Below, piece after piece: positions 1 to 11,637 of a stretch of DNA of 64,000 bases. The DNA comes from Escherichia coli (GTDB taxonomy: Bacteria > Pseudomonadota > Gammaproteobacteria > Enterobacterales > Enterobacteriaceae), in assembly GCF_003019035.1 (NCBI RefSeq), contig NZ_CP027447.1; one strand, written 5' to 3'. Numbering within the stretch: position 1 is the first letter of the stretch; every line of letters starts with the position of its first letter. A model generated the notes under the pieces. It made no database searches. It was given only the letters and a program-made list of their open reading frames with translations, and had not been told where the DNA came from. Both the position numbers and the translations under genes were made by a program.

Positions 1-2
1 TG

Positions 3-107
3 CACCAGTTCTGGCAGGCCGACTTTAAACCGGATATGAAGCTGTTTAAGAAGTTTCGGGAGTATTTATTGGTGAAGACACAGATTAATGCGGTTTATTA
101 TGGTTGA
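3..107 (+). CDS. 3' end of a + strand gene (last 34 codons, ...AVYYG stop). Position and convergent orientation fit the terminal gene of kps region 1 (kpsS-like), but identity is not verifiable from this fragment
   Basis: Open frame 3 runs from the window edge to TGA at 105-107; convergent with the minus-strand capsule genes. Confidence 0.35.
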   Translation, partial: HQFWQADFKPDMKLFKKFREYLLVKTQINAVYYG

Positions 108-330
108 AAGTGCACTCAAAAAACAAATCATCTATAAAGGTATTAAAATCTCTCTCGAGAGGATTAAACCTGCAATAAAACAATATTATAAGACCTTCAT
201 CCCCATTATAACACAGATAAATTTATACAGTATTCATAAGGGAACCGACTGGATATTTCCAATATAGTATTACCTTATTGCGTGCTCAGTGTAACTCTTA
301 GCAATCGAAGGTCAATACAATGAAGCATGT

Positions 331-1092
331 TTATTTAAAATTCTGATTGTATCTATCAATAAGTATCTCATCATTACATAAATACGTATCAACAAATGAT
401 TCTATACGAGAAACTGAAATACGCTCAGATGTATCATTAGAACCGTGATTCATAATATAGCAAACAACTGGAGTCTTCATAGCTAATACACTTCTTCCGA
501 ATGCCAATGAAGATTCTGGATATTTTGTATGGTCTTTTAGTGAAAATAGAAATGTCCCTTTCTCTTCCTGATTTGAACAATCCTTGGCATCTAACTTAGA
601 TATAAAACAACTACCACAATTTTTATAGAATATCTTTGTAACTCCATCAAGGTAAGCGATCTTCTCCCTGCGGGCATCAAACACATAACCTGTATAAAAT
701 GCCAGATCATCAGCATCAGGATTTCGGGAAAACATATATTCTACTTGATAAGTGAAATCTTTGGATACCAGATCATCTGCATCAATAAACATGAAATAGT
801 CACCAACTTTTGCAGTTTCGAGTATTTTTCGACGCGCGACATTTTTTTTTGATGCTTTGTCTGCCATGTAACCATTTTTATCTTCCGGGACGGGATGCCA
901 GACTTTGATAAACTCAGTCCGTGGATTCTGATATCCACTTATAAACTCAGGAATGTCATGACATGCAACGACAATGCGATAGTCGCCACCCGCCCCCTCA
1001 ATTGACTTGATTGTAGCTTCCAGTCGAACGCAAACTTCATTCCAATCGTTAGAAGTCTGTTTTGCCCTGAGTGGGATTGCATAATGAAACAT
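331..1092 (-). CDS. Hypothetical capsule region-2 protein, possible nucleotide-sugar transferase (DxD-like FIDADD motif)
   Basis: 253-aa ORF in the AT-rich block, co-oriented with kpsT and the glycosyltransferases; no family recognised with certainty. Confidence 0.55.
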   Translation of the reverse strand: MFHYAIPLRAKQTSNDWNEVCVRLEATIKSIEGAGGDYRIVVACHDIPEFISGYQNPRTEFIKVWHPVPEDKNGYMADKASKKNVARRKILETAKVGDYFMFIDADDLVSKDFTYQVEYMFSRNPDADDLAFYTGYVFDARREKIAYLDGVTKIFYKNCGSCFISKLDAKDCSNQEEKGTFLFSLKDHTKYPESSLAFGRSVLAMKTPVVCYIMNHGSNDTSERISVSRIESFVDTYLCNDEILIDRYNQNFK

Positions 1093-1171
1093 TTTTATTC
1101 CTTATATACGTTAAATTAATAATATTATAATAAAGAGAACTACCTAATGTAAATAATATAAAATATTACAG

Positions 1172-8729: not shown

Positions 8730-9728
8730 TTATATACCTAAAATATATTTAACCTTCCTGTACATTGTATCATAACGATCTACATGGCCAGGTTTATTAT
8801 CAAAGTATATGCTATAATCTCGAATATCATCCCCCCTATCAATACATCGTTGTATAAATGATAAAAGCAATGTTGTGTCGTAATGGCATTCATCACTAAT
8901 GGCGTTTTTATATTTATCTCTAAAAATACGATAATTCTCTTCTCTTGCACTATAATAACTATCATTGTGCTTTTTGTCATGATATAAATGAAGAGCTAAA
9001 TCTTTCTGAAGCAATATATCTAAACAATACTCTCCCAAATATTTTCTGAACCCAGTAGTAAATAACGGAGAATGACATGGTTTATCTATCAAAAAATCAG
9101 ATTTTAGTTTTGACAAAAAGTGATGGTTATATAAACGTATCAAAAAATCAAAATCTTCATACCCATGACCTTGAAAGCTTTCATCAAACCCATGTATTTT
9201 TTTATAGCTTTCTGACTTCAAAATTGTAATAGAGGAGGGACTTGCTAAATGTAAAAACTCTTTTCTTGAAAAATCAAAATATCTTTTTTTTAATAACTCT
9301 ACTGATATCTTTTTTTTAATTAATATGTGCGTCCCATATTTTGTCAAATATAAACACGGTAAAATATAGAATGGTTTTACTCCTTTTTGTATTTTATTTT
9401 TATATTTTTCGAATAAAACAACATCAGGATATATATCCACATCAAGCAATATGATAAATTCAGTATCAACTAATTTGAATGCAAAATTTCTTAGCAATGA
9501 AGTATTTATGTATTTATAACTACAATCGTATGAATTGACAATAACATGGTTATATTCACTCAAGGCTTCTATAAATACATGATCGTATTTAGTAAAGCGA
9601 TTTCCGTGACCAAATATAATTTTAAAATTATTTTCCCTAGTTGCTTCGGCAATACTAATTGCTTTCTGAATAATATCTTTAGGTCTGCGTTTTAGGTCTA
9701 TTGGGATTATAGCGGTTAACATTTTCAA
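8730..9728 (-). CDS. Family-2 glycosyltransferase
   Basis: 332 aa; IIPIDLKRR N-terminus, LLDVDIYP DxD motif and GFDESFQGHGYEDFDF characteristic of GT2. Confidence 0.7.
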   Translation of the reverse strand: MKMLTAIIPIDLKRRPKDIIQKAISIAEATRENNFKIIFGHGNRFTKYDHVFIEALSEYNHVIVNSYDCSYKYINTSLLRNFAFKLVDTEFIILLDVDIYPDVVLFEKYKNKIQKGVKPFYILPCLYLTKYGTHILIKKKISVELLKKRYFDFSRKEFLHLASPSSITILKSESYKKIHGFDESFQGHGYEDFDFLIRLYNHHFLSKLKSDFLIDKPCHSPLFTTGFRKYLGEYCLDILLQKDLALHLYHDKKHNDSYYSAREENYRIFRDKYKNAISDECHYDTTLLLSFIQRCIDRGDDIRDYSIYFDNKPGHVDRYDTMYRKVKYILGI

Positions 9729-9822
9729 ACTATTTGTAAGCCATAACAGATGTATGTTACAAAATCCATAGTATTTTCAATTGTGGCATTTCCTTTTTTA
9801 TTAAATTGCAAAGCCACACTAA

Positions 9823-10599
9823 TCATGATGTCAGCATTGCCTCTTCACGCGTTCGGTATAACGCCAGACCGATGAACAGGGTGACCAGAGTGAACATTGC
9901 AAGGTAGTTTAGACTCACGCCTTCGCTGATATAGCCAGGCATAACTGCCTCGCGGCTTAACTCTACGACATGCACTAATGGATTCCAGAGTAGATATGAC
10001 CAGTATTGCTTCGGAATCGAGTGTAGAGGGAACATGATGCAGGAGATGAAATACAGCGGCTTAAGCAGTATCGGCAGGACCTTTTGCATTTCAGGGAAAG
10101 TCTTACCAACGACCATGAATATTAAGCCAACGCCACATGAAAGAATGATTAACAAACTCCAGGTAAGCACAAGTTGTAAAAAGTTTGTTATTTCGAAATA
10201 TTCGCCTGCCATCCAGACAATAAGCATAAGCAATATATAAACAGCAACATAAATCAGTGTCTCAAGCAATGCACGCGCAATGATCGTATCGATGGGTTTT
10301 ACTGGTCGATAATTAAACAGCCCCTGATTCGCTTCAATAGCACCTACAGAACGATTGCTGATACTGCTAAAGATAAAAAAGGGAATCAGGCCATTAAGTA
10401 AAAACACCGGGAATGAGATGTCTGGCATCGTGCGGTGCATAATGTAACCAAAAATGCCCAACAGTATCAGCAAATGCGCAGAGGGTTCGAGAATCGCCCA
10501 CAGATATCCCAGACGGAACTTACCAAAGCGTGTTCGTATTTCTCGTAGAAATAATGCCTCTACGGTGACTTTCTGGACTTCAAATCCACTTCTTGCCAT
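9823..10599 (-). CDS. kpsM: Capsule polysaccharide export ABC transporter permease KpsM
   Basis: ABC-2 type permease; sequence from MARSGFEVQKVTVEALFLREIRTRFGKF matches remembered E. coli KpsM. Start set at MARSG (258 aa) rather than the 278-aa track ORF. Confidence 0.85.
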   Translation of the reverse strand: MARSGFEVQKVTVEALFLREIRTRFGKFRLGYLWAILEPSAHLLILLGIFGYIMHRTMPDISFPVFLLNGLIPFFIFSSISNRSVGAIEANQGLFNYRPVKPIDTIIARALLETLIYVAVYILLMLIVWMAGEYFEITNFLQLVLTWSLLIILSCGVGLIFMVVGKTFPEMQKVLPILLKPLYFISCIMFPLHSIPKQYWSYLLWNPLVHVVELSREAVMPGYISEGVSLNYLAMFTLVTLFIGLALYRTREEAMLTS

Positions 10600-10660
10600 T
10601 TGATGATGTGATCCTAATCTCTTCAGGTACGCTACCGCCCTTGGCTTAACAGCTACCAAT
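10600..10660 (-). promoter_or_regulatory. JUMPstart element with ops (5'-GGCGGTAG-3' on the transcribed strand) in the kpsM leader
   Basis: Reverse complement of about 10632-10639 is GGCGGTAG, about 33 bp upstream of the kpsM ATG, embedded in GGTAGCTGTTAAGCCAAGGGCGGTAGCGT. Confidence 0.65.
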
Positions 10661-11637
10661 ACACTGGAGGTAATGCTTATTTGTAACTGGATAAAATTTA
10701 CTCAGACGGTTTGACCTTTTTAATAGCCGCAAAAAATTTCAGCAGAAATTATTTCCGCAGGGATAAATAGATCTATTTCCGTCTCGTTTCTTCTAATCCA
10801 TTCTTCAGGCATGAATGTATTCGGTCTTCTGGTAATTTCAGAAAACTGGCCGTTTTAGAATGTAGAGTTAATTTCTCAGGAAATTATTTTTTGTTCTTAC
10901 TGTTAACTACTTGATTATAATACCCCATATGGATTTTATGCGTAACAATACCTGCAATCTGTTTCAAACCAGAACGCATGCGATTGATTACCAATAAATT
11001 GTTTAGCGAGAAACTATTTCCCTATTTAAAATTCACTCATGTACTTCTTATTTATATCTACAGCACCCTCTTTACAGTCACATTTGTGATTTACATCACA
11101 TTTAAACGGTGTTATTTAAGCCCCATTAATAATTCCGTGAGTAATTATTTTCGTCAATTAAAATATACATCTTGATTATTTTGTGCGTTTATTTTAACCA
11201 GCGTTACAGCCAGCATTATCCCTCAGTAGATATACCTGAGCAGACATTTCTTAAAATCGACGAATAGTTTCCCTGGAAATTATTATGCTTATTTGAAATT
11301 CCCTTTCTGATTATCTCCAGTAATTTTACTAATTTCCAGGCTACACAAAATACAGATCACATAAGAATTATCCTATATGTTTTGACCTATCAATTGTTAC
11401 TCAATGATTTATTACAACTATTAATAATCATAATGTGTCAAAACACTTAAGCATCTTTACAGTCTTAGAAAGGTGTCGATTAACGAAGGCTACATGGTGA
11501 AAAACAGGTTCCTTCAGTGTTACCGAATATTCCGTGGTGGTCTGGAGGGAGATAATTCTTGCTACATCGAAACTCAGCCCGGTGAGCGGGTTTGACAGTT
11601 CCGCACTCACCATTGGGCTAAGGGTTATCAGGTGGGG

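Follow-up and report, generated by a model that had tools for sequence, protein, structure and literature searches.

The group 2 capsule (kps) loci of Escherichia coli, as represented by K1 and K5, have kpsFEDUCS on one side, kpsM on the other and the serotype genes between them. A ~1-kb AT-rich region precedes kpsM, with the JUMPstart/ops element 28 nt from the kpsM ATG, and the locus lies between pheV and the type II secretion (T2SS, gsp) operon, a position documented in several reports (PMC10272209, PMC7387560, bioRxiv 10.64898/2025.12.15.689991), one of which puts the capsule cluster downstream of pheV', between yeeUV and gspM-C (PMC7387560). The region-3 promoter PR3 starts 741 nt upstream of kpsM (reviewed in PMC8960920; Stevens 1997, Xue 2009); it is thermoregulated, H-NS and SlyA bind either side of the start (PMC8960920), and RfaH is recruited by ops. 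The element PAI-V is bounded by 22-bp pheV repeats, and the cps locus is without an integrase (PMC10272209). The same study describes kps-positive genomes in which pheV is intact and the island absent, and reports that the island has repeatedly been excised by itself (PMC10272209). In some papers the entire region goes under the name of a composite pheV-PAI (PMC7387560).

We analysed a stretch of 64,000 nt from E. coli strain SCU-301 or a near-identical genome (the window), in which positions 1-11637 share the layout of the K1 and K5 loci, including a conserved block at the published PR3 position. The best explanation, to which we assign a probability of roughly 0.87, is an ordinary group 2 kps locus at its standard site, of which positions 1-11637 form the distal two-thirds. 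In this explanation pheV and the adjacent integrase are part of a different, PAI-V-like element whose limits are pheV and a 22-nt pheV' repeat, the GC step marks the passage from low-GC capsule DNA, exchanged horizontally, to the core-like DNA of gsp, and the ~1-kb gap between kpsM and gspM would be functional regulatory DNA, the kpsM promoter and leader.

Gene content and base composition

Genes were assigned by mapping the SCU-301 RefSeq annotation onto the window together with its open reading frame list (Table 1). Positions 1-11637 hold region 2, kpsT, kpsM and the region-3 control region; region 1 (kpsFEDUCS) lies immediately to the left of the window in the SCU-301 annotation and is convergent with region 3. 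The locus sits on the chromosome between pheV and the gsp (T2SS-beta) operon. The original prediction had thus correctly identified a kps capsule block abutting the T2SS operon, and its coordinates for kpsM and gspM were right.

Table 1 Features of the capsule locus and of its junction with gspM
Feature	Position	Strand	Basis
kpsS 3' end, end of kps region 1 (rest left of window)	1-107	+	SCU-301 annotation
Family A glycosyltransferase, 253 aa, region 2, WP_001401112.1, GC 0.369	331-1092	-	ORF list, RefSeq
kpsT, ABC transporter ATPase	1172-1840	-	ORF list, RefSeq
Region 2 gene block, GC 0.34-0.39 (next four rows)	2036-8360	-	ORF list, RefSeq
920-aa glycosyltransferase, region 2	2036-4798	-	ORF list, RefSeq
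wecC, region 2	4850-6103	-	ORF list, RefSeq
wecB, region 2	6186-7331	-	ORF list, RefSeq
CgeB-family protein, region 2	7371-8360	-	ORF list, RefSeq
Galactosyltransferase-related protein, region 2, lowest-GC gene (0.28)	8730-9722	-	ORF list, RefSeq
kpsM, ABC transporter permease, region 3, canonical allele	9823-10599	-	SCU-301 annotation, nucleotide identity
JUMPstart with ops GGCGGTAGCGTA (10628-10639)	10628-10666	-	Rfam RF01707, conservation
Predicted 5' leader of the PR3 transcript, ~741 nt	10600-11340	-	Published distance (PMC8960920) from the kpsM ATG at 10599, conservation
Almost invariant block, predicted PR3 core promoter	11307-11396	-	6-sequence alignment, published distance (PMC8960920)
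Spacer, ancestral gspM stop to PR3 region, 196 nt, GC 0.48	11463-11658	-	Alleles by alignment
gspM/yghD, last gene of the T2SS-beta operon, 184 aa	11638-12192	-	SCU-301 annotation, alignments

kpsM has 93-97% nucleotide identity to the kpsM genes of BL21, 300033, E1V33 and E. whittamii. In canonical loci kpsM and kpsT overlap, whereas here kpsT lies ~8 kb from kpsM with five region 2 genes between them, so that no kpsM-kpsT pair is found in one operon; the two genes are on the same strand and both downstream of the predicted PR3. The KpsT protein is also divergent, with 75% amino acid identity to canonical KpsT. Region 2, with wecB, wecC, three or four glycosyltransferases and a CgeB-like protein, is unlike those of the K1 and K5 type loci and of a rare type: at least 80% of it was covered in 53 of 5426 complete genomes. 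The main text of the K-locus typing paper contains no description of the kpsM-region 2-kpsT layout.

The GC content was 0.347 across 1-11637 and 0.558 across the gsp operon (11638-21700), with 0.524 for the remainder of the window, and the kps block thus differs in composition from the core genome. A single change-point fit gave a maximum-likelihood position of 11531 in every range tried, with 2-lnL support from ~11450 to 11579. The sharp boundary that had been predicted between the capsule block and the T2SS operon was therefore confirmed, as a step within ~130 nt, but it falls 60-190 nt to the left of 11637, where it had been placed. The final 175 nt before gspM (11463-11637) have a GC content of 0.49 and are already core-like. 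As this segment is missing in K-12, the compositional and homology edges do not coincide exactly.

Selection for H-NS-bound regulatory DNA, rather than foreign ancestry, could also have kept the GC content low near the junction, since the AT-rich stretch 10600-11462 (GC 0.33) is strongly conserved and occupies the same place as the PR3 region and leader for which regulation by H-NS/SlyA has been published (PMC8960920). We consider this improbable as the main cause because the region 2 coding genes are equally or more AT-rich (0.28-0.39) over 9 kb, which promoter selection cannot explain, and kpsM itself has a GC content of 0.44. Horizontally exchanged capsule DNA remains the preferred source of the step, and the bulk GC content suggests that third codon positions in region 2 are unlike those of the E. 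coli core.

The gspM end and its alternative neighbours

Multi-strain alignment showed that the ancestral gspM stop codon is the exact point from which the sequence is again homologous to that of capsule-less K-12. In the window this codon (11656-11658) is GAG, a stop loss that accounts for the 184-aa length of GspM here. A K-12 breakpoint ~20 nt inside gspM, given by a two-sequence alignment, was discarded when more strains placed the break at the ancestral stop codon. The alignments allow the limit of capsule-specific DNA to be fixed with single-nucleotide precision, at this stop codon.

The spacer between that codon and the PR3 region is missing in K-12 and occurs as two alleles with a mutual identity of just 47-48%, each common to E. 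coli lineages and another Escherichia species, while both flanks are 89-98% identical. A hairpin at 11573-11622 has a 9-pair stem in both alleles with one compensatory pair and is a candidate terminator of the gsp operon, although the window's allele has no strong U-tract and the fold is only moderately better than those of shuffled sequences (MFE z = -2.3). Counting the two alleles separately, the K-12 filler is a third, unrelated form found after gspM in capsule-less strains and E. albertii has a fourth. We suggest, tentatively and as a rather unlikely reading, that the spacer is a long-lived, trans-species recombination seam. If so, the capsule locus would have joined gsp more than once, or the seam would have been kept polymorphic, and the capsule-less state would not be a simple deletion.

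Of 5426 complete genomes, 1594 had the kps-gsp junction and 2508 that of the K-12 type. In the K-12-type empty site pheV lies 148 nt from the gspM/yghD stop. It shares with kps-positive strains gspM through its last sense codon and the 48 nt that directly follow pheV, which in those strains stand upstream of kpsF. Between these, in place of ~20.6 kb of kps DNA, K-12 has an unrelated, AT-rich filler of ~100 nt that contains an 11-bp inverted repeat of its own. On this comparison, neither form derives from the other by simple insertion or deletion.

It is possible, though on balance doubtful, that ancestral Escherichia already had the kps-gsp junction and that the pheV-yghD arrangement of the K-12 type is a derived loss, so that the GC step would be old and vertically inherited rather than the edge of a recent insertion. 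Such a history would fit the occurrence of this junction after gspM, with 83-92% identity, in E. whittamii, Escherichia sp. E1V33 and E. coli E69, the sharing of the two deeply divergent spacer alleles between species, and the retention by a group 3 strain of a fragment of group 2 kpsM with the same junction, as well as the absence from K-12 of the core-like segment 11463-11637. However, sharing across species is equally explicable by recombinational transfer together with the flanks, the filler in K-12 is no clean deletion, and the low GC content of the block argues for a foreign origin at some point. Moreover, in E. albertii a third sequence, unrelated to the kps and K-12 types, directly follows the gspM stop. 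The outgroup sample came from a GspM search of genome contigs and comprises only four loci, the E. albertii contig ending 185 nt past gspM.

pheV, its integrase and the search for mobility features

In SCU-301 pheV is intact at 912314-912389 of the record and a tyrosine integrase gene lies at 910851-912116, ~81 kb from the junction and ~69 kb to the left of window position 1. The original prediction, that the tRNA and integrase lie beyond the other end of the island and outside the window, thus held for position. It did not hold for their role as anchor of the capsule island: kpsF is preceded (L001:1514-1582) by a 22-nt pheV' repeat and then by 48 nt of the sequence natively downstream of pheV, with the pheV terminator, and the kps borders have no repeats. 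The repeat lies between the last island gene (encoding a DUF4942 protein) and kpsF, ~1.15 kb upstream of the latter, and the same repeat and 48 nt are found upstream of kpsF in BL21 as well as in SCU-301. pheV' has a 1-nt deletion; a substitution-only search misses it, whereas BLAST and gapped alignment find it. Because pheV' and native downstream DNA stand before kpsF, the integrase-bounded element ends before the capsule cluster. The alignments place the kps block outside that element, between pheV' with its 48 nt and the gspM stop codon.

The region could instead be a single composite pheV island in which the capsule is distal cargo and the right-hand att repeat by gspM has decayed. The presence of pheV and the integrase at the far end, non-K-12 DNA unbroken from pheV to gspM and the published term composite pheV-PAI are in keeping with this. 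However, the 22-nt pheV' and the native DNA with its terminator before kpsF show where the integrative element really ends on the right, and no pheV fragment or repeat adjoins gspM. In BL21, moreover, kps is kept with the island reduced to a decayed remnant, and there are published kps-positive genomes that lack the island or have lost it alone. The composite island is therefore largely refuted and we regard it as very improbable.

The edge of the kps block at gspM was searched for mobility features. ARAGORN found no tRNA in the whole 64 kb and Rfam gave no tRNA match at E ≤ 10 in 10300-12300. Neither a pattern search nor a BLAST comparison of the locus with the pheV region of K-12 found a pheV 3' fragment adjoining gspM, the BLAST search returning only one pheV copy, outside the window. 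Eight ORFs of 28-65 aa in 10600-11637 matched no Pfam family (best E = 0.25, DUF7434), and tblastn with the island's own integrase left no integrase trace at the junction (best E 0.8). A sensitive blastn search against 72,556 plasmid records gave one match, in a 4.9-Mb record that is evidently a chromosome. RefSeq annotates no feature in the kpsM-gspM gap of 40 sampled genomes. Rfam matches to CRISPR-DR63, DR17, snR57, MIR827 and ssnA at the junction (E = 0.75-9.4, far below gathering scores) were rejected as chance in AT-rich DNA.

These searches bear out the earlier claim that the kpsM-gspM interval is free of tRNA, integrase and IS sequences; the finding named in advance as counting against it, a remnant of a tRNA or integrase in 10660-11637, was looked for with a negative result. 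Across the whole cluster, the annotation from kpsF to kpsM contains no integrase or recombinase gene, the sole mobility remnant upstream of kpsF being an IS110 relic. No direct or inverted repeat of at least 9 nt is common to both kps borders, and searches for a duplication spanning the kps junctions, for microhomology and for similarity between the left flank and the junction gave nothing beyond chance. The kps block thus has the base composition of a tRNA-anchored integrative island and lacks the tRNA, the integrase and the att repeats. We infer from the literature, the absence of mobility features and the conserved flanks that the kps cluster is not self-integrating, which would explain why its edge has no tRNA, integrase or repeat, and that it would be exchanged by homologous recombination through those flanks.

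The kpsM control region and comparison with known systems

The junction had been treated as empty, but it holds JUMPstart/ops and the predicted PR3 promoter and leader region. The JUMPstart match upstream of kpsM (58.5 bits, E = 2e-12, gathering score 35) is nearly invariant across six lineages, and its 3' end lies 28 nt from the kpsM ATG, in agreement with the published 28 bp (PMC8960920). A consensus promoter scan of the junction gave three promoter-like sites versus 4.1 expected, with no enrichment, and could not locate PR3, so PR3 was placed by the published distance and conservation. The almost invariant block is the longest run of identical columns in a 6-sequence alignment that includes E. 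whittamii (identity 0.91-0.98) and is kept across E. coli lineages, Escherichia sp. E1V33 and E. whittamii. A candidate -10 element, TATTTT, lies at 11347-11352, with the start predicted near 11340; the published downstream H-NS site (+141 to +219), if transferred, would fall at ~11122-11200 (PMC8960920). The leader has an indel hotspot at ~10868-10890 in the same alignment. The stretch matched by DR63 is a small hairpin repeat at this hotspot.

Along minus-strand transcription the gap would thus run from the gspM stop through the hairpin, probably the gsp terminator, to the AT-rich region upstream of PR3, which would be the published H-NS/SlyA binding region, and then through the PR3 core promoter, the ~741-nt leader and JUMPstart/ops to the kpsM start codon. 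JUMPstart/ops would load RfaH, so that transcription would extend over kpsM and the whole of region 2. The PR3 start and the action of H-NS, SlyA and RfaH at this locus are thus predicted from the literature. Expression of the transporter ATPase KpsT would then depend on ~9 kb of read-through from the predicted PR3.

The site of kps, its low GC content, the lack of an integrase, the separate PAI-V with its pheV repeats and PR3/ops are all already published, and the significance of the present analysis is modest, going little beyond correct annotation. The ~1-kb gap is better annotated as the kpsM promoter and leader than as an empty island edge, and the cargo of the pheV integrative island should be listed without the capsule cluster. 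The displaced, divergent kpsT in a rare K locus is the only feature possibly worth follow-up.

The island of SCU-301 resembles PAI-V/PAI V536 (Schneider 2004; PMC10272209; PMC7387560) in its P4-like tyrosine integrase beside pheV, in its cargo (pix-like fimbriae, pgtABCP, Ag43, CDI and yeeSTUVW-type genes) and in its end at the 22-nt pheV' repeat upstream of kpsF. None of this island falls within the window, and it does not include the capsule block. Unlike the ends of PAI-V, the boundary in the window is the distal limit of the kps cluster and not an att site. The atypical group 2 K loci KL110, KL112 and KL144 (PMC13171598; bioRxiv 10.64898/2025.12.15.689991) likewise do not follow the canonical pairing of kpsM with kpsT, and their transporter alleles are divergent. 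KL112 carries kpsMT inverted as a unit, has lost PR3/ops along with the neighbouring gsp operon, and has its region 2 outside regions 1 and 3. In contrast, kpsM, PR3/ops and gsp are in their canonical places in the locus described here, and kpsT alone has moved.

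Gene content and composition of the capsule DNA

Window genes were named by mapping the RefSeq annotation of strain SCU-301 (chromosome NZ_CP051751.1), which is 100% identical to window 9500-13000. Over 1100-9900 the two differ by two single-base indels (8801 nt in the window vs 8799 nt), located relative to the SCU-301 RefSeq record between 1840 and 4850 and between 8360 and 8730 (offsets 10503, 10502, and 10501). The large glycosyltransferase is annotated as 925 aa in SCU-301 vs a 920-aa open reading frame in the window, and the first indel may affect the annotated N-terminus. 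The annotated gene content identifies the "capsule island" of the original prediction as regions 2 and 3 of a group 2 kps locus.

Features of the kps-gsp junction and its surroundings (window coordinates)
Feature	Position	Strand	Basis or remark
kpsF-E-D-U-C-S	directly left of window		SCU-301 RefSeq annotation
Family A glycosyltransferase	331-1092	minus	SCU-301 RefSeq annotation
kpsT	1172-1840	minus	SCU-301 RefSeq annotation
920-aa glycosyltransferase, wecC, wecB, CgeB-family protein	between kpsT and 8730	minus	SCU-301 RefSeq annotation
Galactosyltransferase-related protein	8730-9722	minus	SCU-301 RefSeq annotation
kpsM	9823-10599	minus	SCU-301 RefSeq annotation
JUMPstart, full-length	10628-10666	minus	Rfam, 58.5 bits vs gathering score 35, E = 2e-12
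kpsM-gspM gap	1038 nt		SCU-301 RefSeq annotation
gspM/yghD	11638-12192	minus	SCU-301 RefSeq annotation; then gspL to gspC, gspS, pppA, sslE, glcA

The kpsT and kpsM genes are separated by five region 2 genes. The kpsM gene is canonical; kpsT has 75% protein and 71-73% DNA identity to canonical KpsT. In the related locus of FDAARGOS_497, kpsT lies at the extreme end of region 2, adjoining kpsS. The window's region 2 type is covered to at least 80% in only 53 of 5426 complete genomes.

GC content is 0.347 for 1-11637 vs 0.558 for the gsp operon, bearing out the AT-richness first noticed by eye. The boundary had been put at about 11.6 kb. The step is real and sharp. A single change-point fit placed it at 11531 in every range tried (support interval ~11450-11579), 60-190 nt to the left of the gspM stop. 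GC is 0.328 in 10600-11462 and already 0.491 in 11463-11637. The composition profile has further dips at 21750-22750 (~0.43-0.45, near the gspC/gspS/pppA region) and at 28000-28750 (0.34-0.39, upstream of sslE).

The gspM end and the control region upstream of kpsM

In K-12, which lacks kps, pheV is 148 nt from the yghD stop, and BLAST and alignment show homology to the window restarting at 11659 (L002:6594 of the K-12 locus). K-12, the group 3 strain A_5, and the group 2 strain 300033 all end gspM with ...EFGRG-stop, whereas in the window GAG replaces the stop (TAG/TAA) at 11656-11658; capsule-specific DNA therefore begins directly after the ancestral gspM stop codon. The stop loss adds six codons (GspM of 184 rather than 178 aa) and is found in none of the eight other sequences in the comparison, one of them from a strain with the related K locus; the close relative FDAARGOS_497 has a normal 537-nt gspM. 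The spacer at 11463-11658 exists as two alleles only 47-48% identical, flanked on both sides by DNA 89-98% identical: class A in the window, BL21, and E1V33, and class B in 300033, E69, and E. whittamii. Just 3' of gspM, a hairpin (11573-11622) keeps its stem in both alleles with one compensatory pair, and its fold is moderately better than those of shuffled sequences (z = -2.3). As a plausible candidate gsp terminator, it would insulate PR3, the region 3 promoter, from the co-oriented gsp operon.

The kpsM-gspM gap is not empty but is very probably the kps PR3 promoter and leader. The ops sequence GGCGGTAGCGTA forms the final 12 nt of the JUMPstart element and stops 28 nt short of the kpsM ATG, exactly the distance stated for group 2 loci (PMC8960920). 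The same review places PR3 741 bp upstream of kpsM (~11340 here) and H-NS footprints at -135 to -21 and +141 to +219 (~11361-11475 and ~11122-11200); the upstream limit of the H-NS site falls within the GC change-point interval. The junction was aligned across six lineages (the window, BL21(DE3), strain 300033, Escherichia sp. E1V33, E. coli E69, and E. whittamii). The longest invariant run, 11307-11396, spans the predicted PR3 start, and identity within it is 0.91-0.98. A consensus promoter scan of the junction was uninformative (three sites vs 4.1 expected), so the position of PR3 rests on the published distance plus conservation. The PR3 leader has an indel hotspot at about 10868-10890, where 300033, E1V33, E69, E. 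whittamii, and several other genomes carry ~117 nt, bounded by the repeated hairpin motif AAAATAATTTCYTGMGAAATTA, that the window and BL21 lack. Those other genomes match as two pieces with a record span of ~1094 nt.

pheV, the integrase, and the borders of kps

That the kpsM-gspM interval holds no tRNA, integrase, or IS held up in every search. ARAGORN found no tRNA within the 64 kb and Rfam no tRNA-like match at E<=10 in 10300-12300; a pattern search with a 25-mer from the 3' terminus of pheV, allowing three mismatches at most, was also negative. No Pfam family was found in the eight junction ORFs, tblastn with the SCU-301 island's own integrase gave nothing (best E = 0.8), and of 72,556 plasmid records searched at high sensitivity only one matched, a 4.9-Mb record that is evidently a chromosome. 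No tRNA or integrase remnant thus came to light in 10660-11637, the result that would have refuted the observation.

The tRNA anchor and integrase had been expected beyond the other end of the island. Their position is as expected: in SCU-301 a tyrosine integrase (910851-912116) adjoins intact pheV (912314-912389), with yqgA and speC next in order. The distance is 81 kb to the junction and ~69 kb to the window's left end. Their assignment to the capsule locus did not stand. Beyond kpsF, SCU-301 carries an IS110 relic, yeeS-W/cbtA-type genes, Ag43, a CDI system, IS66/IS21 copies, pgtABCP, and a fimbrial operon. The first 48 nt downstream of pheV in K-12, with the pheV terminator, recur at L001:1514-1582 (the SCU-301 region upstream of kpsF), where they come after the final 22 nt of pheV, which carry a 1-nt deletion (pheV'). 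This structure separates the final gene of the island (DUF4942) from kpsF. The integrative element is therefore bounded by pheV and pheV' and excludes the kps cluster, which occupies the interval from pheV'+48 nt to the gspM stop. The structure recurs in BL21(DE3), where no more than a decayed remnant of the island is left. Comparison of the kps block's two borders showed no direct or inverted repeat of at least 9 nt common to both. Outside the window, SCU-301 (L001 1733-1915) and BL21(DE3) (L011 2839-3021) share the IS110-family transposase relic between pheV'+48 nt and kpsF; apart from it, no trace of a mobility gene goes with the block's own left border. The lack of a tRNA and an integrase at the junction reflects that kps does not form an integrative element, and the far-off pheV and integrase are parts of the neighbouring island.

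Distribution, proposed working, and relation to described loci

Coverage of at least 80% was seen for the 978-nt junction in 1594 of 5426 complete E. coli genomes and for the K-12-type junction in 2508 of them. About 100 nt of unshared K-12 spacer had no counterpart in the kps-positive locus. Neither state is a simple indel of the other. A GspM scan of species-representative genomes found the gspM-junction-kpsM-kpsT order also in E. coli E69, Escherichia sp. E1V33, and E. whittamii, and unrelated GC-rich DNA directly after the gspM stop in E. albertii. Strain A_5 (group 3 capsule) keeps a 5' fragment of group 2 kpsM and, beside gspM, 410 nt of window type with IS5 adjacent (L005 7515-9411). 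The locus is consistent with group 3 having replaced group 2 at the same site.

By analogy with the K1 and K5 loci, PR3 would be active at 37 °C and silenced at 20 °C by H-NS bound to the AT-rich sequence that flanks the start on either side, with SlyA countering the silencing and the long leader probably modulating output. RfaH loaded at ops would keep RNA polymerase transcribing past kpsM and on into region 2. In the window locus read-through would also have to extend to kpsT, ~8.7 kb downstream of kpsM, a layout that is not the KL112-type rearrangement of the literature.

The original observation was correct, but the feature is ordinary and already described. PAI-V is bounded by 22-bp pheV repeats and carries the intB integrase, with T2SS synteny conserved at the opposite flank; there are kps-positive genomes that lack the island, and the cps locus "does not possess an integrase" (PMC10272209). 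A capsule cluster downstream of a 22-bp pheV', with yeeUV and gspM-C as its flanks, has also been reported (PMC7387560), and the pheV'/PAI-V arrangement found here is this published picture.
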